NCBI GenBank assembly: GCA_958009085.1
Contig: OY253681.1
Coordinates: forward strand, 124,001-188,000
Reading direction: 5' to 3'
Length of the DNA stretch: 64,000 bases
From: Protoeuglena noctilucae
Lineage: Eukaryota
Shown here: one piece after another, positions 16,672-61,134 of the stretch
Position numbering within the stretch: the stretch's first letter is position 1
How the letters are laid out: each line of letters begins with the position of its first letter
Notes under the pieces: generated by a model
Database searches by the model: none
Told to the model about the DNA's origin: nothing
The model's input: the letters and a program-made list of their open reading frames with translations, nothing else
Program-made: the position numbers and the translations under genes

Positions 16672-17348
16672 CTTTCACCGCGGCACTCTGCCGTGCCTGC
16701 AGGCCCAACGCCACCCTGCGCACACGCGGGCTGGGCGAGCGTGAGTGGCGCCCAGGGAAGAGCGACATTGAGATGATGCGCGAGCGTCGCCGTGGAACGC
16801 TGGCGAGCAGAGGCTCGCGAAGAGCTGGGCCACACAGCATGCGTTCCAGCACTGCGTCTCACCCCGCGCCTCCCCCGCTCCCGAGACCGCGGCCCCCGCG
16901 ATTCCTAGCCGCTCAGTGGGTCTCGCTTGCTCGGACGGCGCGTCTTATTTTCGTCACTGCTGCGGATCCCGGCGCCTCTCCACGCATGCATGTGCAGGCT
17001 TCTCGCTGAACCTACCTGCAGCGAGAGAGGGAGAGCACGCGCAGGTGATGTCGGCAAGCCACAACGGGTACAAGGTCACTGTGGGCCCGCAGGTCGGCCG
17101 TCCAGCGGCACAGGCGACAGGAAGCTGAAGCTCTCAGCCGGGATGGCGCGGATAGGAACGTCGAGCTTACGCACAAACCATGCATATCACAAACAAACCA
17201 CACAGCGCTCAAGGAATTCCGTTCCCCCAGTCTCCGACCATCCCTGACCTGGTCACGATCAATGCCCCCACAACGGAGCGTCTTTATCCCACCAGGCTCA
17301 CGCGAACGCTACTAATCGGTACCCGGCAAGCGGAGGGGAGCCTCCTGT

Positions 17349-17460
17349 CATCGGGAAAACCGCGAGTCTGGCGTCAGTCGGATCATCCCCGTGATACCCA
17401 GGAATCGTGGGGATCATCCCGCTGATCCCGGGGTATCAGAGGGATCATCCCAGTGATCTC
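17349..17460 (+). repeat. Left TIR plus subterminal 31-bp-period repeats (GGATCATCCC core)
   Basis: GATCATCCC starts at 17381, 17412 and 17443. 17380-17395 GGATCATCCCCGTGAT is the exact reverse complement of 22816-22831. Confidence 0.88.
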
Positions 17461-18725
17461 ACTGACGACACAGACTGTAATGTAAACCCTCATTGAGCCC
17501 AGTGATTCCAGCCGCGCGCCCGATCTCCCTGGGGAGGCCGTTTTACGCGGCGCGGTTACGGCCACGGCGCACCCGGGATGCGAGAGGCCGCTGGGAGCAG
17601 TTTCGCGGCATTTCGTCGTGGTCGGGGATCGCGGGGAGCGGGGCCCACTCGGGAGCGCAGCGGCGCCGGAAGCGTTAGCCGAGGCTATCCCGCCGCCTAT
17701 CTTCCTTCTCGGCCGCGATCAGACCTATCTTGATCGCGATCGGACGCATCTTTTGGGCACCCGCGCTCCGGGGCCCGCGCGGCCCGGGGGGCTCCGTTCG
17801 GCCCGTAATCGCTCCCTAGCGTAGCTATTGGTATTTCAATCCCTACGCCGAGGTTACATGACCATCCGTGACGCTCTAGGCAACGCACTCATGCACGCAC
17901 ATGCAGCCGGACTCGGGCGGCCGCAGGCGCGACGGGAGCGCGCAGCGACCACCGCCAGAGGCACCGACCGCTTGTTCCGGACGCTGCCGCTCCATCGGGG
18001 AGCGGCGCTCCGGCACTCGGGCCAGGCACTCGGGAGATGGTGGCGTGCGCGACTCCGCCGTGCCGACGGCCGCCCCAGGAGTCGATGACCACCGCTGCGG
18101 GGCGCCGCGGACGCCAGACGACAGACAAGGGGCATGGGTCGGCGGACGAGCCATGGCGGGCCCGGCCAGCACCCGACCAGCGCCGGAACTTGGGACGAGG
18201 TGGCACGTGCGCCTGCGTGCTTGTTAGGCGAAGTTAGAGTCAGTCTCGGGGTGAGAGAGTGCAGGCACGGTGCCAGGTACAGTAAGCAAGTACAGAGATA
18301 CCACGCTGGCGGACCAGCCCTTCGTCCCTCCCAGCCAACCAACCCCCCCTTGCACACCTGACCGTGTCGCAGACCCCACCGGTAGCGCAGCAGACCAACC
18401 GCGCACCTCGGGGACAGCGACAATGTCCGACCTGATCTAGTCATGCGTATGCTGCATCTCACCTCACGGGAGCTGGCCCCTCCCCTCCCCAGCCACGTCA
18501 GCACACCTCGCAGATGGCTCAGCAGCAGGCTGCACTCTCACCCTAGAGAGGGACGATGATCCAGCGCTGTTCGCACCAGCAGCGCCGAGCCTCGCCTGTG
18601 CGCGGTGCTGTCGCTGCAGCCCTGCAATCCACCCCCGCTTGCCTGGAGGACTGACGACCCCTGAGCCTGCCTGACCCACAGAGCGCGCGCTGGACTTTCC
18701 TCACCTCCGCTTCCACGCCCTCACC

Positions 18726-21700
18726 ATGCCCGCCTTGAACCCTGCATCGCAACCTGCGCTGCAGCTCACCATGCTCGAATGCGACGCGTGTGGAACGCAA
18801 TTCGATACCCCGGCCAAGCTCGCCCGGCATCAGCAAAGATGCCCTGCGCTGTGGGGCTGGAGATATGGCGAGGAGAGCCGCCAGGAAGCACCCCGCCCCG
18901 CCGCCCCACACGAACACTATGTCTCTCCGTCTCTGCGAGGCTCGGACGGGCTGGCACGCGACAGCGCCAGCGCGGGACCAGACCAAGAACTGCGGGAGGA
19001 AGACGGGACGGCGGACGTTGCTGCGGGCAGTGATGGCGAGAGCGAAGATGTAGGACTCGCGTGGCTCCACTACGCCGACACGGACGTGGACATGGACGTG
19101 GACATTGACTCGGAGAGGGGTGAACCGCCCGAGAGCGCCGGAGCGCATGATGCGCCCCAAGAGGACGCTCCTGGAGTCTCCTACCTTCCTGCGCCCGGGG
19201 AGTACGAACCGCTGAAGCTGCCGGAGGACCTGGAGGCATGGCGGGCCAGGAGCAGGGACAGTGACGATGAGTACCTGAGCCAACTTGAAGCAGGGGCGCA
19301 GTTCATGGCATCGCTGACGGCAGCGCATTTCGATTGCTTCGTGAAGCTGCGCCCCGACATCCGCGACGACCTTCTCGACCTCGGGCGCTCCCACCGCACG
19401 TTCCACACCTCACTCAACAGCATCCATGGCCAGTACGAGGTGCGTCACGCCGCGGTGCCGCTTGTGTCGAGGGCCTTGGACGCGGCCGAGGGGGCTGACG
19501 CCAACCAGTGCACGCACGGCCTGCAGGTTTTGCAAGAGGAGGGCAGCACAACCATCATCTACCAAACGATAACGGTGCTGAGGGACATGCTGGTGCACGC
19601 GGAGCAGATCAAGCCCAAGACGCTCGTTAAGTTGATGCGAGACTTCAGCGAGGCACGGGAACGGTCACGCCAGGCGCGGGCGAGACCACATGAGACGCAT
19701 CCCAGCATCCACGAGAAGCTCACCTTCTCCCGGGCGAAGGGGTATAGCGACATAGCCGAGGCTGTCGCTGGCAAAGTCCGCCCCGAGCTGCACGCCCGGC
19801 TGCTCCTCGTGCCCGTCGCGTACAGCATCGACGGGGTGGAGATGACCAAGGGCGCATCGACGACGCCCATCCACATGCACCTCCTGTCGCCTTGCAAGGC
19901 CGTGAGGACAGGGACGCCGCGAACCGTGGCCACCGTCGAGTCCATGAAGGCGAGAGGAGGATTGCCGGCGTTGCAGCCCACACGTCCACCACCACGCCGC
20001 GTGTATGAGTTGTCGCTCGAGGCCCCCGCAGGTGTCCGGGATCACTCCGGGGTCACAGGCAGACCTGAACAACAGAGAGGCCATCCAGCGGCGGCTGGCT
20101 GCCGTGGACCGGCAGCTGATTGGCGTGGCGAGGTCCGGTGGGGTGTGGATGACCCTCCCCGACGTCGGGAGAGTCATCGTCTTTCCCGTCTTGGCGGCGC
20201 AGCTGAACGACATGATGGCCAACTCGTCCACGCTGGCCGTCAGGTCGTGCCCGCTGTGCCTCCAGGATGACTGCCGCACGCCTCGCACCGTCGCGCTGCA
20301 TCGCCTCCAGGTGCAGCACATCCTGCGCTTGAGGAGGGACGTGGGGACGGCCAGGGCCAACGAACAAGCCATGGAGAGCAAAATTCATCCTGTGGTTCCT
20401 GCCCTGTCGTACTGGGACGAGTTCGGGTCGGACTTGTATCAGGGCCAAGCACCTGACCCCATGCACACCGTGGAACTGGGAATGTTGGGCAAGACTGTTC
20501 CCTTCTGCATACTGACCGTCCTCTACAACAACGCGGCAGCGGGAGAGTCTGCGACAAAGGCAAACGCCCTCTTGGCTGCGTTCGCATCGATCATTGCGGA
20601 TGCCAAGGTGAGCTGCAGGTCAGGCAATGGCGTGCGTTGCCTGCAGTGGCGCCGCAGCTGCTCGGTATTCACCTGGCATGTCCATCGTCGTGTGGGTGGA
20701 GCGCAGGCCCCGGCATGGATCCACGCCCGTCCGTGGGGCGAGACCTTCCAGATCGTGCTGAGCCTCGTGGACCCGTTTGGGAAGATAAAGGCGTACGAGG
20801 CGAGGTTCTTGATCCAAGCTCTGCCTTTCGCCCTCGTCGAGCTCTTCTCTCGAGGCGAGGCCGACAGTCAGCGCTGCGAGGGCATCGGGAGGAGCTGCGG
20901 GTATCGCGATGCGGGCCGGGGAACCCCGGGAGTGTTTCCCCACCACCACATCCCTTGCAGAGCCTACGGGCAGCAAAGACGTGCACGACGAGAGGGTTGG
21001 GCTCGTGGCCGTAGCCCTGGCATGCCTTCAGCTCTATGCCGAATGGTCCCTGGAGAGCGCCACCATCGCAGGGGCGCAGGCGGCGGACGCGCAGCTGAAT
21101 AAGGTCCTCCACGTGAGGCCTTCTCCAACACCAGCCCCATCGTTCGCTGCCCCTTACTCACTCTGGAAGCCTTGTCGCTGCCGTGTCGCCGCAGGTCGTG
21201 CTCAAGACGCTGCTGCGTGGCCACGAAATCGTCCGCACGGAGAAGCCCCTCTTCAGCAAGATCGAGAACAGCCAGAAGTGCCACGTGCTTTCGCATTTCC
21301 CTGCAGTGGTGGCGAGGAACGGCTCCATCATGTTGGGCAGCATGAACGACGCCGAGCGCATGCACAAGCCCATTGCCAACGCGCGCACGAACGGCAAGGG
21401 CGACGTGCAGGTACAGGCAAGAAGCGCCGCCCAGCGTAGGCGACGCGGGGAAGCCCACGCAGGACGCGTTTCTTGCGACTCACACGTCTCGATGCGGTCG
21501 CACGGCGCTCGACCCGCGTGCCATGCTGAGCCGCGCTGGACTGACCCCCGAGCCCTGTCGCAGGCGAGCACCAGCGTCATCTCTCAGAGGGCGGCCTCCG
21601 TCATCATGAGCCGGGCGAGGGCGGAGCAGCCGGTCCCGTCCCAGCCCGAGGACCAAGTGAAGGGCGTGAAGACCGTCCTGAAGAAGAACGACCTGTGCAG

Positions 21701-22229
21701 CGAGGGACGCGCGGAAGACTTCGTTTCTAAGGCGGACCTCCTGAACGCCCTCAAGGGCGCGGGGCTTCCCTGCCACGTCTTGGGCGAGGTCGCGCTGACC
21801 TCCACGGTCGAGATCGGGACGGCCAGCGGGGACCGGGCCAGGATCGTCGCCACCGACGAGACCCTGTCCTTCGTCGAGTACCTCCCGGACAGGGGCACGC
21901 TGCAGACGGGCAGGGTCGTGTGCGGGGTTGAGGCGAAGACCAGCTCCGGTGCCGGGACCTTCCTCTGCGCCCTGGTGGCCCCGGTGCACAGGGCCCCATG
22001 CGACCTGAGGTACCTGTCCAACCAGTGCTTGTCGTTCTACACCAACCTGGGAGCGCTGCAGCCTCCCCAGCTGTCGCTCCTGGAGCCTGCGGAGGGCGAG
22101 GCTCTGAAGTGCGTGCCCCTCCGCAACCTTCGGCGGCAGCTTCACGCCGTGAAAGTTGCTGGGAAGCTTCTTCACTGCGGCCACGTGCAGCAGGTCTGGG
22201 AGCACCACGCCAGCGGCGGCGAGGAGTAG
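18726..22229 (+). CDS. Plavaka-like DDE transposase with N-terminal zinc finger (about 7 exons)
   Basis: CDACGTQFDTPAKLARHQQRC finger; LVPVAYSIDG (D at 19830); GVWMTLPDVGRVIVFPVLAAQLND (D at 20209); SCPLC; APDPMHTVELG; KCHVLSHF..NGS..DAERMHKP (E at 21354). Exons splice in frame with no stops. Confidence 0.85.
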
Positions 22230-22769
22230 GTGACCCCAGGAGCTCCCCGATGCTCGCGGTGCCAGGTCCCCGACGCCGGCGATGTCATCTGTATCGAGAT
22301 AATTCTCCGAAGCCAGCCCCGCGCCCCCATCCGCAGCGCCATGACGGCGGGGACGGCTCACCTCCCATGCAGCAGCCACCTCCGTGCGGCGTAGCCGGCA
22401 AAGGCGCCGCAGCTAGCGAGATTTAGGTCACCTCAATCCATAGGCCAAGCGCTGCGTGCCCGATCGCGGCCGCGGCGGCGGTAGGCCTGGTCGAGCACGG
22501 GGACCTCCCCGGCGCCCCCGGGGGCCCGGCGAGCCCGCGAGCTCCCGCTCATCGCATAGATATGGACATCTCACGTTGAACAGCGGCGGCGCAGGGGAAG
22601 CGGACCCCGGATGCGTCGACGGCCCCCGTCTGCATGCTGGAGCAAGCTTTAGGACGCGAGAGGGGCCTCCGAGGCAGTCATTAGCACCAACTAGCAAATG
22701 TGCGGTCTCTCCGCCTCCTCTCGAGCCCCCTGAGCAAACGCGGGGGCGCGCACGCGCGTCAGGGCCGCG

Positions 22770-22921
22770 GCCCGGGATCGCTGGGATCACTGCGGCAGTG
22801 GCGGGGATCGCCGGGATCACGGGGATGATCCCGGCGATTCCCGGGGATAACTGGGATGAATCCAGTGATTCCCGCGATCCTTCTGATCCGAGTGACGTCA
22901 AATCGCCGGGTTTTCCCGATG
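22770..22921 (-). repeat. Right subterminal repeats plus TIR
   Basis: Cluster of GGGATC/GATCCC motifs, GGGATGA at 22822 and 22853 (31 apart), terminal GGTTTTCCCGATG. Confidence 0.88.
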
Positions 22922-23625
22922 GTGCCCCAGAGCCAATGACACAGACTCGCTAGCAGGGGTCTCCCCCATTTCGCCAACTCGGTCGCCTCCGCACCATCAT
23001 CGGCGCCCACCGCATTCTAGAGTTTTACTACTGTGGTTTAGGTGGAAGCGTGCTTTGAAGAGGCTCGGGGACAGCGGCAGCGGTAGAGAAGAGGTCAGTG
23101 CCGATTCGTGGCAGGGTTCGGTCGCTGTCCTTCCCAGAGAACTGCATCAAATAAAACTTTTCTGCCCACTCAGCTTGATGCCGTTTCTTGCTTTGGTTGC
23201 TTGTTTCCCACGCAGAGGCAGGCCTAAGCGGTGATTTTTTAACTCATTTTCCGCCATCCTTGTGCCTGGTGTATAGATTAAGGGCTGACGAAGGCAGCGG
23301 TGGGTCTTTCCGTCGCAGGCGCTCGACACGTGCACGGGACATGCTCACATGCTGACGGGCGCGAGTGGAAGCCGGAGGCGCAACTAGAGAGCCGCGGCGC
23401 ATTGATGCTACAGTTGTGACATAGGAGGGAGACCCCAGCCGTGCTTGGGCGGGGATCGGGGTGAGGCGTCGCGCGGCTGGAGGGGACTGCATGCTCGACC
23501 GTCGTGCAGGCTGGCACGCGCGAGCCTGGGGGCGCTTGCCATTCGCCCGCTCGCCGGTGTGACAAGAGCATCGTCGCAGTGGCTCGCTGGGTGCCAACGC
23601 CCCCCTTCGCCCTGCGCGCCTCAGG

Positions 23626-26600
23626 ATGGCGGGCTCTTTTAGCCGAGGGTCTCGGCTCGACCCCCTCCGCGACCCGCCCCACGCGTCCAAGTCCGGGAAT
23701 GGGACGCTCGGGAACGGCTTCGGCTCATTGACGAACGTGGCCGATGCCGCGAGTGGCGCCAAGCGCGGCGCGACCCTCCCGCCCCTGCGAGGCGAGGCCA
23801 AGCGCCAGCGGTCCAAGGTCACGCTCACGTCCTTCACGGCGGTCCCTGCGGGCGCCCTGCCGCTGTACGAGGGCGTGATCGAGGAGGACTTCCACACGGA
23901 CATCCGCACGGGCAACGACGTGATCGAGTACTACGCCCGCTACGGCCACGGGGCGCGCGTAAAAGTGTTCCACTGCAACCGCGCGCTGCCGCCCGGGCAG
24001 GGGTCGCCCTACGAGCTCACGATCGTGCCCCGGCAATGCGTGGACCTGGAGTACTACACCATCACCGCCGCGGGCGTCGTGCACCACCCGGACGGGCCGG
24101 GCGAGCCGGAGTACACGCCCATTGGGGAGTGGCTGCGGGAGCAGAGCATCTACAACCTCATGCGGCAGATGCGCTTCTTCAAGTACTACATCCACCAGCG
24201 GTTCTTCTCCCAGGCAAGCGGGGGCGGGGGTAGGCTCATCAAAAGAGCACGAGTGCGTTGGGGTAGCGTGCATGATTGGCCGGCGCTTGCTCCGGTCTCC
24301 CGCAGTGGCGCAACATCTCCCATCGCCTGCGCTTCGACAAGATGCGCAAGCGCGTCATGGACCGGGCCTTCATGGCCAAGCCGGCCCTGTGCGACGCCAT
24401 CCTCAGCATCCGCACCCTCGTCACCCAACTCGGGTCCACCAGCGCCGTCAGGTGAGCGCGCCGTCGCAGCTAGACTTTCATCGCTCTCATACCTCTTTGT
24501 CTACGTCGGCCAGGCTGGCATGGGCGGCTGGCGTATGCCCAACCGAACGTGCCAACCCGGATCGGCATTTTCAAACTAAACCTCCTCCCTGCGCCCCGCT
24601 GCAGCCTGGAGGAGGGCAAGGTGTACACGCTGGAGGAGTTCCAGGCCGCACAGCGCGAGCACCGGCAGCAGAAGGCGTCCCATCAGCTCGAGAGCATCAT
24701 GGACCACGTCAAGGCATCTTTGCAGCGCGTCATGCAGTCGATCCTCAAGCAGGAGGAGAGCGTGCGGAAGGAGATGATCGAGTTCGAGTCGGACCCGTCC
24801 CGGGGAGCCGCGCAGGGCAAGTCGACGGTCAAGGTGCAGGTCGAGGTGAGCGGGCGAGGGGGGATACGACAGTGTTGCACCCTGCGAGCGAGGGAGTGGC
24901 TGCAGGTCGGCAGACACGGCGTGGGTGATTATAGAGCTAGAAGAGCTTAACAGTCACTTGGCGGCTGCCGTCAAGGAGATAAGGAGCCATCGTTTCCTAC
25001 TGCTGAGCCCATCCCTCCCTCCCCACTCCGCAGTACATGCAAAAGTCTAAGATGCACCGGACTCTGAAGCAGGAGGTGGAGTTGCTGCCCAACCTGGTCC
25101 GCATGGTGGACCTGATGATCGTGGGCGCCCTGTGCGACGTGGTCACGAACGGCGTGGCTGCGCTGCAAGAGGCGTTCGAGCGGTCCGGCGTGCTCCTCAC
25201 GTCCGTCACGTTCGCCGACGAGGGCCGCACGTTCGATCCCGCGCTGCGCGACATCCACGCGGAGTTCTCGGAGCACTTCGTGGACCAGCTGCTGCGCCTG
25301 GTGGCGGGCGTTCCCCGCGTGCTGCACCACCAGCACTTCCTGCCGCTCTTCCAGAAGCAGCTGGGCCGCAAGGCGCTGGGCCCGGACCTGGCGAGCGTGG
25401 TGCTGACGAGCAAGCACATCAGCCGGGCGCACATGACCCTCGAGCGCACCATCGCCAAGTCGTTTGCCGAGGCCGATACCCGCACCAAGCATCTGGAGGA
25501 GCTCCGGGCCATCGTGGAGTTCGGGCGCGTGTGGGACGCCGAGGAGTACACGGCCAAGGAGAGGGACCTGGCGCAGTTCCGAAAGGACATGACGCTCATG
25601 CGGGCGTGGGGGCAGCAGGCGAGGAAGGGGCGGGGTAGCTGTGGGCGGGATGACTGCAGCGGTATTGGGCCGCGTGCAGGGTGGCACCGTGCACCTGCGC
25701 CTGCCAGTCGACCGCTGCTTAGTACTATTGCCACCGCTGTTGCCCACCGCAGGTGTCGGCGCTTGGGGAGACGTTCAGCGCGGGAATGCTGGTGGTCAGC
25801 ATGAACCAGCTGCAGGCCCAGCTGTCTCTGGTGGTCAACGCGGCGCTGGAGACGATGCGGGCGATGCTCATCGTGGCCGCACGGTCCGAGTGCGCGCGCG
25901 TGCTGGCTCACTTCCAGGACCACGCCCGGATCATGTCGGAGCGTCCCACGGACCTGCACGGCTTCGCGGGGTTCCTGGAGAACGTGATGGAGCTCCAGAC
26001 GGACCGGGAGGCCTTCATGGGAGAGGCCAAGCTGGTCGACGACATGTACAACATGCTGGTCCAGTACGAGGCGAAGGTGCCGGAGAACGACCGGCTGGTC
26101 GTCGACGACCTCAAGGACATCATTGTGACGTTCAACAAGGCGAGGGGATGGTGGCGGAAAGGGTCGGGAGAGGCGCAGCGGATGTCACTAGCGTGGCGGC
26201 GCACGCGATTTGATGAATAAGCACTGTCACTGCTTGCTCTGCCCGCCCACTCTCATCAGTAGCCATTGCCCTCTCTGCCATCCGCCTCTGTGCCATCCAC
26301 ACTTGCTATTCCTGGTCCAATACAATAAACAGCGTTGCCCCGACCCCCACAGGTGTTTGAGGAGTCCGGGACGTTCGTGGAGGAGAACAAGGAGAGCATG
26401 ATTGCGTCCCTCGAGTCCAGCATCGGCTCTCTGTTCGAGGACCTGCAGACGGTGGTGTCGGACCTTCGGTCGGGCACCTACGATCGCAAGGAAAACGACG
26501 CCGCGGAGATGGTCGCGTCGCTGGGGGCCCTGGCCGACAAGTACGAGTCGATGAAGGCGAGTGGACGGTGGAGAGTTGATCAGTGGGAGTCAGTGCGGTG

Positions 26601-29600
26601 TTGACTGGAAGTTGATTGCAAGGCGATGAATGCGAGTATATGAGTGGCAATCCATGCTGTGTTGACTGGAAGTCGATGGTGGCTAGCAGATGCTGCTGAC
26701 TGAGAGTTTGAGACGAGGCGATGAAGGCGACGCGATACTGCCGAGTGATGCTGGTCACATCAAACCATTGACCCATCACGCTCTGCGTCACCGCGCCTGC
26801 AGGACCTGAGCGGCAAGTTTGCGCACTACCAGGAGCTGATGCAGCTGGGCCAGACGGACTACACGACGGTGCAGATGGCCGGTCGGGAGCTGAAGTGGCA
26901 GCAGGACAAGTGGGGCATGCTAGCGGAGTTTGAGGGCCTGAGCCGCGGGTGGCTGACGGACCGTGCGTCGACGCTGGACCCCGAGGCGATCCAGACGAAG
27001 GTCGACGAGATGAGCAAGGCCAACTACAAGATGATCAAGGCCCGGAAGGATGACCCGGTGTGCGCGCGCCTCAAGTCGCAGATCGACGGCTTCAAGGAGT
27101 GCATCCCGATGCTCACGCTGGTGGCCGACGAAGCTCTCAAAGACCGCCACTGGGCCGAGATTTACGCGCTGATGGGCCAGGAGTATGTGGCGGGAGAGAC
27201 CGTGCCCAGCGTGCAGGGCCTGCTGGACGGCGGCCTGCCGCGCCACTTCGACGCTTTGGAGGCGATCGTGGGCAACGCGGTCAAGGAGAACAACCTGCTG
27301 AAGAACCTGGACAAGATGGAGCGCGAGTGGAAGGCGCAGGAGTTCCGCGTTGTGCCCTACAAGAGCGACTACATCGTCGGCGGCGTCGATGACATCCAGA
27401 CGATACTGGACGACCAGATCGTCAAGATCCAGGCCATGAACGGGCAGCCGTACATCAAGCCCTTCGAGGAGCGCTCGAAGCTGTGGGAGGCCACGCTCAC
27501 GCGTCTGCAAGAGATCCTCGACGCCTGGCTCAAGGTGCAGTCCACCTGGATGTACCTCGAGCCCATCTTCTCCAGCGACGACATCGTGAAGCAGATGCCC
27601 GAGGAAGGGGCCAAGTTCAGCCAGGTCGACGCCAACTGGAAGACGCTTATGAAAAACACCAAGGACGCCCCCTCCGTCATCCCCATCGCCCAGAGGCCCG
27701 AGGTGCTCGAGGTGCTGCTGAAGATCGACGGGCTGCTCGAAGAAATCCAGGCGAGAGGGGGGGTGACGTGGGGGAGAGGCTGGGTGGCATGCGCGGTAGC
27801 GGTCGCGTGGGTGTGGCGCGGTGGGGGCGTGCGGGGTGGGCTCGGGGGTGGTAGTCGAGGTGAGCTATAGTGCAGCTGTAAAGGGCCGTGCCACTCTCGC
27901 TGCACCTGCATGCCAACCCCTCGCACCCCACCCCACATGCCAACACCCTGCACCCCACCCCCCTCCCCCGCAGAAGGGCCTCTCGGCTTACCTGGAGAAG
28001 AAGCGTCTCTTTTTCCCTCGTTTCTTCTTCCTCTCCAACGACGACATGCTGGAGATCCTGTCAGAGACCAAGGACCCCACGCGGGTGCAGCCGCACCTGC
28101 ACAAGTGTTTCGAGGCCATCGACCGCCTCACCTTCGAAGACACGCTCAAGATCCGGCAGATGGTGTCGGTGAGGGCGAGGCGGTGGACTTCGTCGACCCG
28201 GTCGACACGGTGCGGGCCAGGGGCGCGGTCGAGAAGTGGCTGGTCGAGGTGGAGGACGCCATGGTGCGTTCCGTGCACGACGTCATCCGGCGCGGCATGG
28301 AGAAGTACCCGGGGCAGCTGCGCAAGGAGTGGGTGCTGGACTGGCCGGGTGCGGTGGTGCTGGTCGTGACGGCCATGTTCTGGACCAAGGGGGCTATGGA
28401 CGCCCTGGGAGCCGTGCAGGGCGGGCGGGAGGGTGCGCTGGGTGACTACGAGAAGCAGTGCACGCGGGAGCTGCTGGAGATCGTGGACTTGGTGCGGGGG
28501 GAGCTGACCGCGCTGCAGCGGGCAACGCTGGGGGCGTTGGTGGTGATGGACGTGCATGCGCGGGACGTGGTGACGGCCATGGTGGCCAAGGGGGTGGATT
28601 CCGACCAGGACTTCGAGTGGCAGGCGCAGCTGAGGACGTACTGGCAGGACGACACCAAGGGGGACAAGGGCATGACCGTCATGATGCAGATGATGTCGGC
28701 GGAGGTGAGGGGTGGTTGGGTTGGGGTGGGGGAGTGGTGGAGGCGGAGCGAGGGTAGCGGGGTTAATGATGCAAATGATGTTTGCTGAGGTGAAGGGCAG
28801 AGGCGGGGGTAGCGGTGGCGGCAGGGCTTATGTGGGGGTGTGGTGGTAGCGTCGGGATGCAGAGTGGGGTAGCGGTAGAGGCAGGGGCGGAGCGAGGGTA
28901 GCGGTGGTGGCAGGGCTGACGTGGGGGTGCGGAGGTAGCGTCGGGATAAGGGTGGGGTAGTGGTAGATGTGGTAGCGGAAGTGGCGGTGGTAGCAGCAGG
29001 GGCAGCAGCGCTGTGCAAGCCGTCACCCCTACTGATCCCCACCCCGCGCCCCTCGTCCTCCACAGGTGGAGTACGGCTACGAGTACCTTGGCAACTCCTC
29101 TCGCCTTGTCATCACCCCTCTGACCGACCGGTGCTACCGTACGCTCATGGGCGCCATCCACTTGACTTTGGGTGGTGCCCCAGAAGGCCCCGCGGGCACC
29201 GGCAAGACCGAGACGACCAAGGACTTGGCCAAGGCCATGGCTCGCCAGTGCGTGGTGTTCAACTGCAGCGAGCAGCTCGACTACTTGGCCATGGGGAAGT
29301 TCTTCAAGGGGCTGGCGTCGTCGGGGGCGTGGGCGTGCTTCGACGAGTTCAACCGCATCAACCTGGAGGTGAGAGCGAGTCTGAGAGGGGGGCATCCGAT
29401 GAGCTGAGGCGTGTCATCCTCGAGATGTGAGAGTGAGCCGCTAGTCACTGGAGTGGATATGGGTGACCGACTCCATCGCTTGTGCACCCTCACACTCTCC
29501 CTTACTCCACCCACACCCACACCCGCGCCCACACCCACACTGCTACCCACATTCCCACCCACACCCCCACCCACACCCACACTGCAACCCAATCCACACC

Positions 29601-32600
29601 CACACTGCTACCCACACCCACACCCGCACCCACACCCGTACCCACACACCCACCCACACACCCACCCCCCTCGTTACCCCCCAGGTGCTGTCCGTGGTGG
29701 CCCAGCAGGTGCTCGACATCCAGCGCGCCATCAACGCCCGCCTTCGTGAGTTCGTCTTCGAGGGCACTGAGCTGCGACTCAAGTGGACGGCGTGGTGTGC
29801 CATTACCATGAACCCCGGGTATGCGGGGCGGTCGGAGCTGCCCGACAACCTCAAGGCGCTGTTCCGGACGGTGGCCATGATGGTGCCCGACTACGCCATG
29901 GTGAGTGAAGAGATGGTCACGTATGGCTACTGATGCTGGTTGTGATTGATGACAGCGTTTGTTTTGGTCGTCTTTGCCATCTCGAACACAACCCTGCGCC
30001 TTCTCACATTTCCACTGTAACAATTAGTAGCTACCCACTCCCGTCCGCAAAACCCAACCCTGTTCATATCGCTCCCCCCGCAGATTGCCGAGATCATCCT
30101 GTTCTCGTACGGCTACCTCCAGGCGCGCGAGTGCGCCAAGAAGATCGTGCAGTGCTACAAGCTCTGCTCCGAGCAGCTCTCCAGCCAGGACCACTATGAC
30201 TACGGCATAAGGGCCGTCATCGCCGTGCTCCGCGCCGCCGGCAACCTCAAGCGCCGCTACCCCGACCAGGACGAGTACGTCCTGATGCTTCGCTCCATCA
30301 CGGACGTCAACCTGTGCAAGTTTCTGTCGGAGGACGTTCCGCTATTCCAGGGCATCATCAGCGACCTGTTCCCGGGGGTCAAGCTGCCAGCACCCGACTA
30401 CGAGCACATGGAGGCAGCGATGCGGGAAGCGTGCGCGGAGATGAACCTGCAGGCCACGGACTACTTCCTGCTTAAGTGCACCCAGCTGTACGAGATGGTG
30501 GTGGTGCGGCACGGGCTCATGATCGTGGGGTTGCCCTTCTCTGGCAAGACGCGGTCGTACCAGGTGCTGGGGCGCGCGCTGACCAAGATGCACGCGCTGG
30601 GGCAGGACGGGCAGGACGAGGTGGAGACGTACGTCATCAATCCCAAGTCGGTGACCATGGGGCAGCTGTACGGCCAGAACGACCCGGCGACGCACGAGTG
30701 GACCGACGGCGTGCTCGCCGTCACCTTCCGCGCCTGCGCCGGCGACCGCTCCTCGCGGCGCAAATGGCTGGTGCTCGACGGCCCGGTCGACGCCCTGTGG
30801 ATCGAGAACATGAACACGGTTCTCGACGACAACAAGAAGCTCTGCCTCAACTCGGGCGAGATCATCCAAATGTCCACCAACCACTCCATGATTTTCGAGG
30901 TCATGGACCTCGCCGTCGCGTCCCCCGCCACCGTCTCCCGATGCGGGATGGTCTATTTGGAGCCCCACCAGCTGGGGTGGCGGCCGCTGGTGCGGTCGTG
31001 GATGGCCACGCTGCCCCCCCACTTCGAGGCGCCGCTGCGGGACGCGCTCACGGCGCTGTTCGAGTGGCTCGTGCCCGTCACGCTGCGCTTCCTGCGACGG
31101 GAGGTCCGCGAGGTGTCGCCCACGCTCGACGCCAACCTGGTCGTCACGCTCATGCGCAACGTGGCCGCCATGCTCGACCATGTGGGCGCGCAGGTGAAGG
31201 GGGAGGACGGGGAGCTCGCCTGGGACCGCGGGCGCTACGACGCGCTGGGCGAGGGCGGCTGCCGCACGCACGCCGAGGGGGCCTTCCTGTTCGGCCTGGT
31301 CTGGTCGTTAGGATGCACGGGCGCCACCCACGACGCGCGGGTCGAGTTCGACCGTTTCCTGCGCCTCGCGGTCGCCGGGCGCCTGTCCGAGTACACCAGC
31401 CCCTCGGGGGAGAGGTACGGGACGGCGGACGACGTCCCCGCGTCCCCGCCCGCGCTGTCGGTGCCGATGATTCCGGAGGAGGGCGGCGCGACGGTCTTCG
31501 ACTATTTCTTCGACCGGGACGCGGGGTCCTGGCGGCGCTGGACGGACATCATGGACGCGTCGCCCATCCCGCCCGACGCCCAGTTCCGCAAGATCATCGT
31601 ACCGACCACCGACACGGTGCGCTACACCTTCCTGATGGGCCTGAACGCCCGGCAGCGCTCGCCCATGCTGGTGGTCGGCGAGACGGGCACGGGCAAATCC
31701 GTGTACGTGCAGCAGTTCCTGCGCACGCTGCCCGCGGACGAGTTCGCCCCGCCGGTCCTCATCAACTTCTCCGCCCGCACCACGGCCAACATCACGCAGT
31801 ACATGATCGACGGGCGCCTCGACCGCCGCCCGCCCAAGCGACTTGGCATCTACGGGCCCCCGGGCAACAAGCGGGCCGTCATCTTCGTCGACGACCTCAA
31901 CATGCCCAACAAGGAGGAGTTCGGGGCGCAGCCACCCATCGAGCTCCTGCGCCAGTGGATGGACCACAGCGGGTGGTACGACCGGGAGAACGCCTTCCGC
32001 ACGATCAAGGACGTGCAGTTTATGTGCGCGATGGGCCCGCCCGGTGGCGGCCGCACGTACGTCACGCCCCGGTACACGCGGCACTTCAACACGGTGGTGA
32101 TCACCGAGTTCGATCGGCCCACGCTCGAGCACATCTTCACGACGATCCTCGACTGGCACATGGCCCGGGAGAGGCTGCCCGAGGAGCTGGGGCCCACCAA
32201 GCCGCAGTGCATCGCGGCCACGCTCGACGTCTACTCCAAGGTCACGCTGACGCTCCTGCCCACGCCCGCCAAGTCCCACTACACCTTCAACCTCCGCGAC
32301 ATCAGCCGCGTCATGCAGGGCGTGCTGCTGGGCAGGCGGGCCATCTTCAAGGACGCGGGCGCGGCGCGCGACAAGATGATCCGGCTGTGGTTCCACGAGA
32401 CGCTGCGGGTCTTCTACGATCGCCTCGTCGACGAGAAGGACCGGTCGTGGTTCCTCGACTACCTCAAGGACGTCGTGCAGCGGCACTTCCGACGTCATGT
32501 TCGAAAAGGTGTTCGCCAAGATGGTCGGCCGCGAGGGGCTCACGCAGGACACGGCGCGCAAGTGCTTCTTCGGCGATTTCATGGACACGGCCGCGGACGA

Positions 32601-35600
32601 GCCCCGCGACCGCGTCTACGACGAGCTGACGGACCCCCGGGCCATCATCGAGCGCGTGGAGGAGTGCCTGGCGGACCACAACGCCATGTCCAAGCGGCCG
32701 ATGAACCTCGCCGTGTTCCTCTACGCCTGCGAGCACGTCTCGCGCATCTGCCGCGCGCTCCGGCAGCCCGGCACGCACATCCTCAACGTCGGGCTGGGCG
32801 GCTCGGGCCGCCAGAGCCTCTCGCGGCTGGCCGCGCACATCATGGGCATGGAGGTCTTCCAGATCGAGATTTCCAAGTCGTACGCGGTGCAGGACTGGCG
32901 CGAGGACCTCAAGCGCTTCACGCGCCGCGCCGGCGCCGACGGCGTTCCCTGCGTGTTCCTGTTCAGCGACACGCAGATCAAGCTGGAGTCCTTCGTCGAG
33001 GACATCAACAACCTCCTCAACGCCGGCGAGGTGCCCAACATGTTCCCGTACGACGAGCGCACGGCGATCCGCGAGACGTGCCGCGCCACGGCGCGCAAGC
33101 AGGGCGTGGTTCTGGACAGCGAGGAGGACCAGTGGGGCTGGTTCGTGGACAAGACGAAGGAGAACCTGCACGTGGTGCTGTGCATGAGCCCCGTGGGCGA
33201 GGCCTTCCGCGAGCGGCTGCGCCAGTTCCCGTCGTTAGTCAACTGCTGCACCATCAACTGGTACCAGCAGTGGCCGGACGACGCGCTGGAGGCCGTGGCG
33301 GCCAAGTTCTTGGCGGACGTCGACGTGACGGACAAGGTGCGGGCGGACGTGACGGCCATGTGCAAGACGTTCCACAAGGACGTCCGTGCTTTGTCCGACG
33401 AGTTCAGGGACCGCATGGGGCGGTACAACTACGTGACGCCCACCTCCTACCTCGAGCTCATCTCCATGTTCAAGTCGGTGCTGGGCGTGCAGCGCGACCG
33501 GGTGACCAAGGCTAAGCGGCGGTACGAGACGGGGCTGCAGAAGCTGTCTTTCACGGCCGAACAGGTGGCGGCCATGCAGAAAGAGCTGGAGGATCTGATC
33601 CCGCAGCTGACGGTGACGGTGGCGCAGGTGGAGACGCTGATGGGGCAGGTGAACAAGGAGAAGACGGAGGTGGTGGAGCCCAAGAAGGCGATGGTCGACG
33701 CCGAGGTGACCAAGGCGTCCGAGGCAGCCGCGGTGGCGAATGGGATTAAAGAAGAGTGCGAGACGGCGCTGGCCGAGGCGCTGCCGGCGCTGGAGGCCGC
33801 GGAGCAGGCGCTGCTGACCATCAAGGGCCCGGACATCAAGCTGGTGCAGACGTTCACGAACCCGCCCGAGACGGTCAAGCAGGTCATGGAGGCCGTGTGC
33901 GTGATGCTGGGGGAGCAGCCGGTCAAGGTGACCGACCCGGCTACCGGGAAGAAGAACACGGAGTACTGGCCGACCAGCAAGCGCATCCTGGGTGACCCCA
34001 AGTTCATGACTAGGCTGCTGGGGTACGACAAGGACAACATCGACCCGAAGGTGATCGACCGTATACGCACGGGGTACCTGGCGAAGGAGGAGTTCACGGT
34101 CGCCAACGCCACCAAGGCGTCCACGGCAGCCGCGGGCATGTGCAAGTGGATCTACGCCATGAGCGACTACGACCGGGTCGCGAAGGTCGTGGCACCCAAG
34201 AGGTGAGGAAACTCCACTCCTTGGGGAGGCATGTTAGGTGGTGACTGCTGAGGAGGGGTGGATGGGGGTTGAGGATGTGGCTGGGAGATGGCTGTGGTTG
34301 CAGCTGTGGCTGTGGCGGTGGCTGCGGCCGTGTCAGCACCGGTTGTCGCAAGCGTGTCCCAGCCCCGTGACCCCAACCCCTCACCTTCTCGCCAACCCCC
34401 TTTCCTCGCAGGGAGCAGCTGGCGGTGGCGGAGGAGAAGTATCGGGAGGTCAAGTCTGCATTGGAGGCCAAGCAGGCTGAGCTGAAGGAGGTGATGGACA
34501 AGCTGGCGGTGCTGGAAGAGCAACTGGACGCCAGTCAGAAGAAGAAGACGACGCTCCAGGAGGAGGTGGACCTGTGCAAGACCAAGCTGGGGAGGGCGGA
34601 GAAGCTCATCCAGGGGCTGGGGGGAGAGAAGACCAGGTGGACGGAGGTGAGGGGGGGGGGGAAGGGAGGGGCGCGGTGCGGGTGGGTGAGGGGTGATGAA
34701 TACCTAGGCTAACGATGCTTGGGGTTCGCTGGCTCAGCGGCAGTTTCGACCTAGCAGTCACGTCACCGTCGCCGTGCATGTGAGGGTGGCTATGTGACAT
34801 GTGACTGAGCCAGCATTGCAATCTCAGTCGCTGCCACCATTGGTCCCCCACCGCAGGCGGCGGAGAAACTGGGCGTCAAGTACATCAACCTGACGGGCGA
34901 CATGCTCATCAGCGCGGGGGTCATGGGGTACCTGGGGGCCTTCACGATGGCCTTCCGGGACAAGGTGGTGTCCCAGTGGATCAGCCTCTGCAAAAAGATG
35001 GGCATACCCGCGAGCGCCAAGTTCTCTTTGACCGAGGCGTTGGGCGACCCCGTCAAGATTCGATCCTGGACCATCGCGGGCCTGCCGAACGACACGTTCA
35101 GCATCGACAACGCGATCATCCTCTCCAACGCCCGCCGGTGGCCCCTGCTCATCGACCCCCAGGGCCAGGCCAACAAGTGGGTCAAGGAGATGGAGAAGGG
35201 CGAGCTCCGCGTCATCAAGCTGTCCGACCACGACTTCTTGCGCACGCTGGAAAACGCAATCCAGTTCGGCCTACCGGTGTTATTGGAGAACGTGGGGGAG
35301 GAGCTGGACCCGTCCCTGGAGCCCCTCTTGCTCAAGAACATCTTCAAGTCGGGCGGCATGAACTACATCCAGCTGGGAGACACGCAGGTGAGAGGAAGGG
35401 CGGGGGTGCAGGGTGGAGGTGGGGTGCAGCTGCGAGGGGCGTGGGGGTGCGGCGGGGGTAGCCAACTGGCAGAGGAGGTGGGCAGTGCGACGTGTAGGGA
35501 TGGGGACTTGACTGAGCTACTTACATAAGGCAGCTCGGCTACGCTTGCGTAGAACCGCTGCCATGTGTTGTCGTGCTACCTCGACATGCCCTCGTGACCC

Positions 35601-38600
35601 TGCCCCTCATCTGCGTTGCTGCAGGTGGAGTACTCGGACGGCTTCCGCTTCTACATCACGACGGCGCTGCGCAACCCTCACTACCTGCCCGAGGTCGCGG
35701 TCAAGGTCACGCTGCTGAACTTCATGATCACCCAGGACGGCCTCAGCGACCAGCTGCTGGGCGTGGTGGTGGCCGAGGAGCGGCCGGACCTGGAGGAGCA
35801 GCGGTCGGAGCTCGTGGTGCAATCGGCGAGCAACAAGAAGCGGCTGAAGGAGATCGAGGACGAGATCCTGCACGTGCTCAGCAGCTCCCAGGGCAACATC
35901 CTCGAGGACGAGGGGGCCATCCGCGTGCTCTCCGAGGCCAAGGCGGTGTCGAACGACATCGAGGATAAGCAGAGAATCGCGGACGAGACGCAGGCGGAGA
36001 TCGACGAGGCGCGGAGGGGCTACGCGCCGTGCGGGGCGTTCAACAGCGTGCTGTTCTTCTGCATCGCGGACCTCGCCGGGATCGACCCGATGTACCAGTA
36101 CTCGCTCGCGTGGTTCATCCACCTCTTCGTGCGCAGCATCCGCGCGTCGGACAAGGCGGACGACGTCGCGAAGAGGCTCGACCTCATCAACGACCACTTC
36201 ACCTACTCCCTCTACCGCAACGTCTGCCGCTCGCTGTTCGAGAAGAACAAGCTCCTTTTCGCCTTCCTCCTGGACTTCCGCATCATGCTCGCGAAGAAGG
36301 CGCTGTTCCCTGGAGAGTACTCGTTTTTCCTGACGGGCGGCGTCGGGGTCGAGGCCATCGCGGAGGAGCGCCCCGCGGCCCTCTGGGTCTCGGACAAGAT
36401 GTGGGGAGAGCTCACGCGCGCGGCTGCGGCCGTCCCGGAGCTCCGCGGCGTCCCCGCGCACCTCAAGGCCAACCTCGAGGACTGGCGCCTTCTCTACGAC
36501 TCCACGGACCCCCACTGCGCCCCGCTGCCCGGAGACCTCGGCAAGACCCTCATGCCTTTCCAGAAGCTCATATTGCTCCGGTGCCTGCGCCCCGACAAGC
36601 TCGTCCCGGCCATCGCCGACTTCGTCTGCACCTCCATGGGCCCGAAGTACATCGACCCTCCCCCCTTCGACCTCAGCGGCTCCTTCGCCGAAAGCTCCTG
36701 CACCGTCCCGCTCCTCTTCGTCCTCTCCACGGGATCCGACCCCACCGCGTCCCTGGTGAGAGCCCCGCCGTGCCAGAAAGGGGAGATCCAAACGTGCTGT
36801 GCTGACGACGGCGGTGGGGCCGCCACTCGCACTCCCCTCCGCCCCCACCCCTGCCGTCCGCCACCCACGCCACTTTGCTTTCAACCACTTATATCCATTC
36901 TCCGCTTATCTCGTCTCCGCAGCTCAAGTTTGCCGAGGACCGTGGCTTCGGTGCCAAGATTGACATCATCTCTATGGGCCAGGGCCAGGGCGGCAAGGCG
37001 GCCAAGCTAATCCAGGAAGCGAGGACCACCGGTCGATGGGTCCTGCTGCAGAACTGCCACCTGGCGCCCTCGTGGATGCCCGAGGTGAGGGGCGGTGTTG
37101 TTGCAAAACTGTGACGACGTTGTCGACGCAACTGGCTGCGGCGAGCCGGCATGCCAGCTGAGTTACTTTGCGATCCAAAAAACTTACAACCTCATCTGGG
37201 CTGGCTTGGTGCATTGCCAAGCCCATTGGTGGTATCACCAGTCGCACACGATGTGCGCCTCTGGATAGCGATATCTGACAACCCACCCTTTGCCTCGCTT
37301 GCTCTGCAGTTGGAGCGCATTTCCGAGCACATCACCGAGGACGACACCGACCCGGACTTCCGACTGTGGATGATGTCCATGCCGTCGCCGTCCTTCCCCG
37401 TCGCCATCCTCCAGGTGACCTGAGGGCGACAATTGGCGTTCGTGTTCATGTGCACATCCATTTCAAACAGTGGCGTGGCTGCCGGTGCTTGATAAAAGAT
37501 ATTGCAGCCTTGCAACAGCCTGTGCTAACAACACCCTTGCTCCCCAACCTTGGTCGTAGAATGGAGTGAAGATGACCATGGAGCCACCCGCGGGCCTGAA
37601 GGCCAACATGCGGCGGTCGTTGCAGCTCGACCCCATCAGCAGCGACGCCTTCTACGACGGGGCCAAGAAGCCCGAGGAGCTCAAGCGACTGCTGTTCGGG
37701 CTCGTATTCGTCCACGCCTTCGGTGAGTGGCGAATTGCACCTTGGCACGTTCCACACTCAGCGCGACAGCTGCCGAACCCACCGCGGCAGTCGCTGCGGC
37801 GGCTTGCTTTAGTACAAGTGCCCCTTGTCTCTAACTCCAACCCACCCGGGAGTGCATGGCTACCCTCCCCGCCCCCGTCTCGCCCCGCAGTGCAAGAGCG
37901 CCGCAAGTACGGTCCCATCGGGTGGAACATCGCTTATGGCTTCGACGACGGCGACCTGCGCATCTCGGCTAGGCAGCTGCGCATGTACCTCGACGAGAAC
38001 GACAAGGCGAGGAGTCGGGGGGAACATGGTTGCATTCTAATTGCCACAGAGACAGGGGCATGCGCTGTGGCATAGCCGTTGTGCCCGTTGCCTTGCCCAG
38101 CGCGCGTGGAGGTAGTCGCATCGCGATTGATACAGACGAGATAACTCATGTCACCCTCGCTCCTCGCAGATCCCCTTCGACGCGCTCAAGTACGCCATTG
38201 GCGAGTGCAACTACGGGGGCCGCGTGACGGACGACAAGGACAGGCGCCTTCTCACCACGGTGCTGGAGCGTGTCTATCGACCGGAGATCATGGAAGAGGA
38301 CTTCTCGCTCTCGGCGTCGGGCACCTACCGCATCCCGGGGGCCGAGGGCCTGGAGGACATGAGGAACTACGTGGCGCAGCTTCCGTTGATGGCGGCGCCC
38401 GAGGCTTTCGGACTGCATGAGAACGCGGACATCACCAAGGACCTGCAGATGACGGATCTCATGCTGCAGACGCTCCTGGACGCGGGCGGGGGAGCGGGAG
38501 GGGGCGAGGGCGGCAAGGGCGGACAGGTGGGTGCTTGCGAGGGCGCCAGGGACGCAGCGGGCGCTTGTTGGCAGTCGCCTCAGCGACTGGCGACCTGTAT

Positions 38601-59400: not shown

Positions 59401-61134
59401 GCAGCAGCGTCACATGTCCAACGCACGTGACGTGAAAAACGCAGCATGCACCATCTGTCAACGAGTGCCAAGCCCCACACACACTCCAACATGCAACAAC
59501 CCCCCTCCCTCTAACCTTAGGGCACTTGAGCTCCCAGGGCATCCCCGCCATGACGTCGACCGCGTCCGCACCCCCCACGCCCACCGCCACCATGCCCAGC
59601 CCACCCGCGTTGGGCGTGTGCGAGTCCGTGCCGATCATGAGACCCCCGGGGAAGGCGTAGTTCTCCAGGATAATCTGGTGGATGATGCCAGAACCGGGGC
59701 GCCAGAAACCGATGCCAAACTTGGCGCCGGCGGAGGAGAGGAAGTTGAAGACCTGGGCGGGGAGAGGGAGAGGGAGAGGGGGGTGGGGAGAGCGAGGGAG
59801 TGTGTCGACATGACATAGATGCACGGTACTCATGCATTGCATCCGGGGGTAACGCGTGGACCCATCCATCCCCATTCATCAAACAAGAGACGACCCGTGA
59901 GACAGACATTGTATATTTGTATCCACAAGACAGGCACTGCACACTCTGCATCCCCCTTCTCACCTCCTGGTTGTTCTTGAGGGCGTACTTCATGTCGGCC
60001 ACGGCGCCGAACTTGCCCTCTCGGTCCTCCTGGGGGGACGTGGTGCCCTCGATCAGGTGGTCGCAGTGGATGGTGGTAGGGACTGCGAGTGAAGCGAGGG
60101 GGGGGGTTGATGTCAGAGATCAACAGGGTCACAGACAATGGTGGTCGGGGACGGGCGCGTTGGGAGCTGAGATGCTAAAACGAAAGATTGGGTGCGCTGT
60201 GCGAGGGGAGCAGTGGCGGTCCGGTCGGATTGTCTTGTTCGCGACGAAGAGCGGCGGGAAGGGGGTAGCGGTATGCACGACAGTCGCGGCGCGGGAAGCG
60301 CTTGCTGGCCCAACCAAGCCCGGCGCGCACCGGCGGTGGTGGGGAGACCCGAGGAGATGAACTGCAGCACGGCCATCTGCGCCGTGGCGTCCTGCATCGC
60401 CACGCGATCGGGGCGGAGGCGGAGGTAGGACTTGCCGCGCACGATCTCCTGAGCCGAGGGGTCGTCGAGGTGCCCGTAGACCACCTTCTCCGCCAGCGTC
60501 AGCGGCTGCAGAGGAAAAGGAAACGACGCAGGGGTCATCGCGGGCGAGGGGCGGCCGGAGATCTCCGCAGGCGGGCACCTTGCCCTCCGCCCGCAGCGAG
60601 GGCCGCACCCGGTTCAGGCGCTTCCGGACGATCGACAGGTTGTCCTCAATCTTCTTGTACCGGTCATTGATCAGCTCGGAGTGCTCGTAGCGCGACATGG
60701 GGGCCTTGGCGGCGCCCGCGAGCACGCTCATGGCGCGGCGTAAGATGGCGGGCGTCTGGTGGCCATCGGCCACCGCCCTGGAGCCCTGCGGGAGGTGAAG
60801 TGCGAGCGATTGACACCAGCGACACGCCGGCATCCGCACGTCGCCGCTTGCGCGTCGCGGTCAGCCGCGGAGGGGGGGGGCTGGCACCGTTGGGGCGGTT
60901 CCGGGCGCGGGTGGCGCCGGGGAGGGTTACAAAGGCATACGGGAGCATCGACCGAGAAATCAACGCATCGGGAGGGATGGGGAGGGTCCGGCCGCAGCAG
61001 CGAGGCCATCCGACGGGCCGGGGCGGGTGAGGCGGGCGCGGGCGACAATGGGGTGGTCATCAGGGCCGCGCGGCGCATTCCGATGAAACTTCGGCAAATG
61101 ACTCACGCACGGGCGTCAGCAGACGCCGTGCCAT
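56488..61134 (-). CDS. Aconitate hydratase, mitochondrial ACO2 type
   Basis: [112 protein letters not shown]. First exon (MARRLLTP at 61134) is tentative. Confidence 0.95.

Follow-up and report, generated by a model that had tools for sequence, protein, structure and literature searches.

In a 64,000-nucleotide window of the Protoeuglena noctilucae genome (assembly GCA_958009085.1, contig OY253681.1, positions 124,001 to 188,000 of the forward strand; coordinates below count from the first base of this window), the stretch from 17349 to 22921 (5573 bases, ~5.6 kb) is a young, multi-copy cut-and-paste DNA transposon. It is near certain that this is a real DNA transposon with these ends, and we assign it, with a probability of roughly 0.8, to Plavaka, where its sequence features point to a PlavakaB-like lineage within the EnSpm/Mirage/Chapaev/Transib (CMCT) clade. 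A further-reaching proposal, for which the odds appear to us somewhat worse than even, is that the element is a currently active, autonomous PlavakaB-type transposon whose protein lies beyond ordinary sequence detection and whose terminal 13–14 bases are almost those of basidiomycete PlavakaB. The ends and the duplicated target site are:

17347–17348, unstranded: left copy of the target-site duplication, GT; the same dinucleotide stands directly after the right end
17349–17361, plus strand: left terminal inverted repeat, CATCGGGAAAACC; 17348/17349 is where contigs of other copies part from the window sequence
22909–22921, minus strand: right terminal inverted repeat (GGTTTTCCCGATG on the plus strand); contigs of other copies diverge at 22921/22923
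22922–22923, unstranded: right copy of the target-site duplication, GT, matching the GT before the left end

The terminal repeats form a perfect 13-bp pair, GGTTTTCCCGATG at 22909–22921 being the exact reverse complement of CATCGGGAAAACC at 17349–17361, and imperfect inverted similarity extends past the 13-mer (33 nt, 73% complementary, to ~17385 on the left). For the window copy, duplications of 1, 3 and 4 bp are ruled out by the flanking bases (T/G, TGT/GTG and CTGT/GTGC, respectively), and 2 bp fits; the termini and the GT on both flanks are as an initial annotation of this DNA had described them. Taken alone, the 13-mer pair is within chance (two matches versus 1.22 expected with up to two mismatches allowed; 33 of 100 shuffles gave at least two), and no second copy or relative of the element is present elsewhere in the 64-kb window. 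Both observations would suit a stretch that is not mobile, namely a host region that arose by segmental duplication or an artefact of assembly with short inverted ends.

This explanation was weighed against other copies of the element. In all, 19 sequencing runs from nine studies contain the stretch or part of it, several being marine metagenomes or metatranscriptomes and some bearing single-organism labels, and contigs of four of them (X3, from the cultured organism; X9; and X10 and X13, both RNA libraries) were compared over window positions 16900–23400. In three of the runs, contigs follow the window as far as 17348/17349 and 22921/22923 exactly, beyond which they continue into unrelated flanks, with at least three other left and at least three other right flanks among the contigs of other copies. 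On the left, loose ends lie before 17348 (X13 and X3) and before 17349 (X3), with the flanks ..CACCA|T, ..GCTTTA|T and ..GTCCAG|; on the right, they lie behind 22921 (X9, flank TTGTAAC) and behind 22923 (X3, GT followed by CGTCGGG). An X9 contig of 5647 nt covers the entire element, with T before and TTGTAAC after it, which fits a 2-bp and excludes a 3-bp duplication. Because contigs of other copies break away exactly at the ends, we take the element boundaries as proven; the copies share the ends that had been proposed, and the X9 contig is compatible with the proposed duplication length.

Depth in X3 is 45.2 and 76.7 over the window flanks and 1245–1330 over most of the element (~17–29-fold), a ratio that we read only as some tens of copies because depths added up over contigs do not give a copy number. 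Since contigs of three runs break off precisely at the ends and enter six or more different flanks, and in view of this excess of depth and of the subterminal repeats, transposase motifs and Plavaka-type termini described below, a non-mobile origin of the stretch appears extremely improbable. Two X3 contigs diverge only after 7 or 12 flank bases (at 22928 and 22933; GTGCCCC and GTGCCCCAGAGC), which could reflect a flank polymorphism, a repeated flank or a target preference.

The copies are close to one another. Among 99 X3 contigs, 73 are at least 99% identical, 25 fall at 95–99% and one at 90–95%. The window copy differs at 8 of 5573 bases (17379, 17459, 17761, 19477, 20372, 21286, 21607 and 22849) from the sequence common to all four runs; since these eight differences are common to the four runs, the family is very homogeneous and the window copy slightly off the majority. 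At five of the eight sites the window copy has T and the majority another base. Deletion derivatives also occur: one X3 contig joins 18542 to 21802, with 3259 nt missing, at a single-copy depth of 48.1, and the only public proteins that match the element (P0001, P0003 and P0004, from contigs of 3084 and 4273 nt) have internal deletions of ~123 and ~288 nt relative to the window, neither of them bounded by GT..AG. The contigs of X9, X10 and X13 cover the element and not the window's own flanks, and they permit no inference on strain, transfer or expression.

Among the contigs of the four runs, no empty-site joint from 17348 to 22922 is listed and no excision footprint was seen. Searches for more distant copies by their ends gave no relative. 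An 18-base degenerate end pattern occurred at no fewer than 119 loci in metagenome contigs, mostly chance matches, and none of the 119 resembled the element any further; a longer end pattern with gaps had no match in collections of genome contigs and viral contigs; and a protein-guided scan of viral contigs returned four pattern matches with no relative among them.

The CATC ends are the strongest single argument for PlavakaB. According to Kojima (2025; PMC12730594), PlavakaB elements end in 5'-CATCA..TGATG-3' and duplicate 2 or 3 bp of the target; PlavakaA elements have TGT..ACA termini and duplicate 2 bp. The element, with CATCG..CGATG ends and GT on both sides, agrees with the PlavakaB termini and with duplications of 2–3 bp. 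In the supplement of that paper, all 29 of the examined PlavakaB consensus entries numbered 1–4/N1 start with CATC, mostly as CATCAG[C/G]AAAA; one of these fungal consensus sequences, AuCo, starts with CATCGGG, and PlavakaB-1_RuGr is identical to the element at 13 of the first 14 bases. A further 22 entries, numbered 101–110, do not start with CATC and may be partial consensus sequences that lack termini. Figure S2 of the paper gives the 2-bp duplications AT and GG in fungal copies. CATC had been taken initially as a departure from the expected CACT; judged by the published description, it is instead a hallmark of PlavakaB.

The element thus shares with fungal PlavakaB of the Agaricomycotina the CATC[A/G]G.AAAAC.. 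termini and a 2-bp duplication (PMC12730594). It differs in its host, a marine chlorophyte, and in its fifth base, which is G where the fungal elements have A (AuCo also has G). At 5.6 kb, it is also without TET/JBP or another accessory gene.

Its single gene is predicted to be split into five exons:

18726–19901, plus strand: exon 1, 392 residues; start ATG, CxxC..H..C zinc finger from 18771, acidic region, Asp candidate at 19830
19902–20031, plus strand: predicted intron 1, 130 nt, GTGAGG..GCAG; frame change
20032–20607, plus strand: exon 2, 192 residues; second Asp at 20209, CPLC at 20248, DPMH at 20455; the sole part with a Pfam Plavaka match
20608–20751, plus strand: predicted intron 2, 144 nt, GTGAGC..TTCCAG; in frame and stop-free
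20752–20854, plus strand: exon 3, with the GC donor GCGAGG; alternative end at 20866 with the GT donor GTCAGC; frame kept either way
20855–20960 (or 20867–20960), plus strand: predicted intron 3, 106 or 94 nt, ending in CCCTTGCAG; required for an open frame
20961–21112, plus strand: exon 4 of the gene model
21113–21194, plus strand: predicted intron 4 of the gene model, 82 nt, GTGAGG..CGCAG
21195–22229, plus strand: exon 5; HVLSH at 21282–21296, Glu candidate at 21354, C-terminal region, stop at 22227–22229

Once the four predicted introns are removed, the reading frame stays open through 1013 or 1017 codons. In all five exons, third-position GC is 0.78–0.87 in the proposed frame and lower in both of the other frames. 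At 17349–18700 and 22300–22921, the first 1.4 kb and the last 0.7 kb of the element, the three-base GC periodicity is flat, so that there is no sign of a second gene. The putative introns resemble those of a host aconitase gene in their donors, including GCGAG, and in their acceptor signals; the host introns, mapped with a Bryopsis protein, served as the splice reference. Retention of intron 2 would still yield a full-length protein, with an insert of 48 residues.

In the numbering of the spliced protein, the catalytic candidates are D369, D452 and E723, that is D in YSIDG at 19830, D in NDMMA at 20209 and E in ERMH at 21354, with CPLC at 20248, DPMH at 20455 and KCH at 21276 between the outer two. 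The positions of the two Asp and the Glu are those initially reported, and the CxxC, DxxH and KxH motifs and the zinc finger (starting at 18771) named with them are present, except that the KxH motif, found as KCH at 21276, is really the first half of an H(3)H motif (HVLSH). Read at the level of motifs, C465-x2-C468 follows D452 by 13 residues and H699-x3-H703 precedes E723 by 20 residues. In RAG1, the second His and the Glu (H942 and E962) are likewise 20 residues apart. The zinc finger of exon 1 gave a weak zf-C2H2 match in Pfam (E 0.061).

C(2)C and H(3–4)H motifs are common to the Plavaka/EnSpm/Transib clade, which also shares CA..TG ends and duplications of 2–5 bp (PMC12730594). At this motif level, D369, D452, C(2)C, H(3)H and E723 of the element conform to the clade, and fungal PlavakaB has C(2)C and H(3)H in the same place, between the second Asp and the Glu. 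PF18759 (Plavaka) was the only Pfam family found on exon 2 (E 0.011; 15.4 bits, below the gathering cut-off of 26.3), with residues 33–152 of the exon colinear with positions 198–317 of the 325 in the profile and spanning the second Asp, CxxC and DxxH. The initial annotation had proposed such a profile comparison for the spliced protein; made here on single exons, it returned the expected family for exon 2, at a sub-threshold score. In a feature search of the ESM Atlas with exon 2, Plavaka clusters made up 22 of the 30 matches and one match was to Transposase_21; the best scored 0.95 (174 of 256 features), a value that shuffled proteins reach about once in 100. Pfam match, Atlas neighbours and termini are individually weak lines for the PlavakaB placement, but they are independent. 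Together with the motifs and the 2-bp duplication, they support the original description of the element as Plavaka-like and related to the CMC group.

The likeness to Plavaka might nonetheless be superficial, and the element might belong to another lineage of the same broad clade (EnSpm/CACTA, Mirage, Chapaev, ESTA, Lanisha or a separate algal lineage). The sub-threshold Pfam score would be consistent with this, as would the one Transposase_21 (EnSpm) cluster among the 30 Atlas matches, and C(2)C, H(3–4)H, CA..TG ends and duplications of 2–5 bp occur clade-wide (PMC12730594). However, neither PF02992 nor another transposase family was found even at E up to 10, and Plavaka accounts for 22 of the 30 Atlas matches. 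The termini are CATCG and not CAC..GTG, the duplication is 2 bp and not the 3 bp of EnSpm, its sequence is GT and not the TA of ESTA (PMC12730594), and the first 13–14 bases agree with the starts of fungal PlavakaB consensus sequences. We consider placement in another lineage improbable and retain the PlavakaB-like assignment.

Comparison with individual groups leads in the same direction. En/Spm carries subterminal repeat arrays, as the element does, and Transib makes 5-bp duplications, unlike the element. EnSpm/CACTA and the element have in common a DDE core with C(2)C and H(3–4)H, CA..TG-type ends and short duplications (PMC12730594). They differ in that the element has CATCG rather than CAC(TA) termini, a 2-bp rather than a 3-bp duplication and no second, TnpA-like gene, and in that no exon matched PF02992 or DUF4218 at E up to 10. 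EnSpm proper is disfavoured because of the missing PF02992/DUF4218 match, CAC ends and 3-bp duplication. Zisupton makes 8-bp duplications, and Plavaka is described as lacking similarity to the Kyakuja-Dileera-Zisupton (KDZ) group (PMC12730594). No KDZ Pfam family matched the element, and KDZ/Zisupton is excluded because the duplication is 2 bp. Transib/RAG1 falls in one clade with the element according to Kojima 2025 (PMC12730594); a sequence search of solved structures, made with exon 2 and the start of exon 5, gave irrelevant weak matches only, so that no solved structure, including those of Transib/RAG1, was matched by the element.

Inside both ends lie arrays of short repeats:

17380–17458, unstranded: left subterminal repeats, 31-nt period, 2.5 copies, 77% matches, with GGGAT[CG]A / T[CG]ATCCC motifs
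22772–22874, unstranded: right subterminal repeats, 9- and 31-nt periods (31-nt array at 22813–22874), with a GGGATCA-type motif as on the left

GGGAT[CG]A or its complement occurs six times in the left 200 bp and five times in the right 200 bp, as compared with once in the 5.2 kb between the ends and 11 times in the 58.4 kb of the window that lie beyond the element. These subterminal repeats are probable transposase-binding sites. By analogy with the clade, we propose that the one five-exon gene would encode a transposase of ~1013 residues with an N-terminal zinc finger and a DDE core formed by D369, D452 and E723, which would bind the GGGATCA-type repeats and the CATCG..CGATG termini and excise the element. 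Reinsertion would take place at a 2-bp staggered cut, and such a cut would give rise to the 2-bp duplication.

Whether this gene works bears directly on the proposal. A real family might have a non-working gene, the frame changes representing damage or unused introns and the copies having been spread by another element or having become immobile. Such a gene would account for the unspliced state of the RNA-library contigs (one X10 contig of 5527 nt and seven X13 contigs, with no intron joint listed and none joining across a predicted intron), for the dependence of intron 3 on a GC donor or a weak GT donor, for the lack of a full-length gene model in the protein collections searched and for the absence of a family signal in the exon with the first Asp. 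The four frame changes coincide, however, with GT/GC..AG pairs that delimit 82–144 nt, within the 63–235 nt of host introns; codon-position GC periodicity tracks the proposed frame through all five exons; and the majority sequence of the four runs shares this structure, no insertion or deletion being listed for its coding part. Contigs lose rare forms, spliced ones included, and RNA libraries may hold DNA. We therefore regard a non-working gene as unlikely, though less so than placement in another lineage.

Several observations weigh against an intact, active PlavakaB-type element. With regard to function, all four introns, and hence the intact frame, are predicted; the RNA-library contigs are unspliced; and the donor of intron 3 is either GC or the weak GTCAGC. 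All four coding differences between the window copy and the majority are non-synonymous (L251S, M506R, V700A and M807K), which fits neutral decay of the window copy, and a complete 2-bp duplication is visible in one copy only, that of the window. With regard to family, the transposase is very divergent. The PF18759 score of exon 2 is under the cut-off, as stated above, and a scan of a longer frame that includes exon 2 did not return the match at E up to 1. No family signal came from the exon that carries the first Asp: Pfam gave no transposase family for it, and an Atlas query with its last 200 residues had a best score of 0.80, which is at chance level.

The remaining protein searches weigh in the same sense. 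A phmmer search with the core as query, run over 1.84 billion representatives, recovered nothing but P0001, which is a fragment of the element itself, and P0002. Exon 2, used as query in word-based searches, had no match among longer proteins and, at similar length and E<=10, matched only P0001. A single-sequence AlphaFold2 model of exon 2 had a mean predicted local distance difference test (pLDDT) score of 37.3 and provides no fold evidence; the expected RNase H-like fold would be divided between two exons by predicted intron 1. P0002, a tandem-repeat protein of 1780 residues, was rejected as a relative: 22 of its stretches aligned to the in-frame intron part of the query.

On balance, we put the chances that the element is autonomous and still active at about even. 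The initial annotation had called it possibly active and autonomous, with an uninterrupted transposase. The former is plausible in view of numerous near-identical copies and deletion derivatives; the latter holds once the four predicted introns are removed, and both are tempered by introns that are predicted and RNA contigs that show no splicing. The near-identical copies, the deletion derivatives and the marine runs of several studies suggest that the family is still moving.

The first description of Plavaka came from basidiomycetes (Iyer et al. 2014), and the initial annotation had treated the group as mainly basidiomycete. This no longer applies: Plavaka has been reported in red algae, chlorophytes, streptophyte algae and a moss (Spirogyra genome paper, PMC13519894), potentially active 'EnSpm-Plavaka' families with polymorphic insertions have been described in Auxenochlorella (bioRxiv 10.1101/2025.02.07.637104), and the red alga Bostrychia carries giant Plavaka elements of 17–19 kb with three accessory genes (bioRxiv 10.1101/2025.02.11.637652). 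The element resembles these in that Plavaka-type transposases occur in green and red lineages alike, a comparison made by description only, and it differs from the giant Bostrychia elements in being compact and single-gene. Among the papers listed in a full-text search of the Plavaka literature, none was seen to describe an element of a marine chlorophyte with these ends, leaving aside the supplements, which may hold related families. The family, annotated initially as an undescribed algal one, thus looks unreported, while its kind is already known from algae, with chlorophyte Plavaka reported in 2025–2026.

The published algal reports, in their available portions, give classification rather than anatomy. 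The element provides a complete Plavaka-type example outside fungi, with both ends, a duplication, subterminal repeats and a plausible intact gene, and it is a candidate for the study of transposition or for a tagging tool in a marine green alga. The combination of a very divergent transposase with nearly unchanged terminal bases indicates where in the system constraint is strongest. Genome annotation that relies on standard protein searches and on Pfam thresholds would overlook the family. Were the proposal of an active PlavakaB-type transposon correct, end recognition would have been nearly fixed since fungi and green algae split (compare the RAG/Transib heptamer), or else the lineage would have moved between kingdoms; the element would also offer a natural, compact, single-gene vehicle with which marine green algae could be tagged by insertion.

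The window, with a G+C content of 65.6%, belongs to the nuclear genome of a flagellate eukaryote. The transposon is located between a WD40 gene and a dynein gene, and the window also carries kinase and OST3 genes; no Rfam families were found in it. The neighbouring and reference genes are:

14.5–15.4 kb, minus strand: WD40 gene
25700–37010, extending beyond 37 kb, plus strand: axonemal dynein heavy chain gene, recognized by its Pfam domains
56500–60800, minus strand: mitochondrial-type aconitase gene with about nine introns of 63–235 nt

The dynein gene begins a few kb downstream of the transposon and has unusually long exons, with one open frame of 1164 residues; its Pfam domains are ordered DYH2-5-8_CC (weak), DHC_N2, AAA_6, AAA_7, AAA_8, MT stalk and AAA_9. 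When a fragment of the aconitase was searched, the first 14 organism-named matches were all to chlorophyte green algae (identity <=83%), a non-green name appearing only afterwards, which supports a green alga as host. The aconitase introns have GTGAG or GTGCG donors and, twice, GC donors (AAG|GCGAG), and their acceptors consist of a long C-rich tract followed by CAG, which makes this gene a useful splice-signal reference for the host genome.

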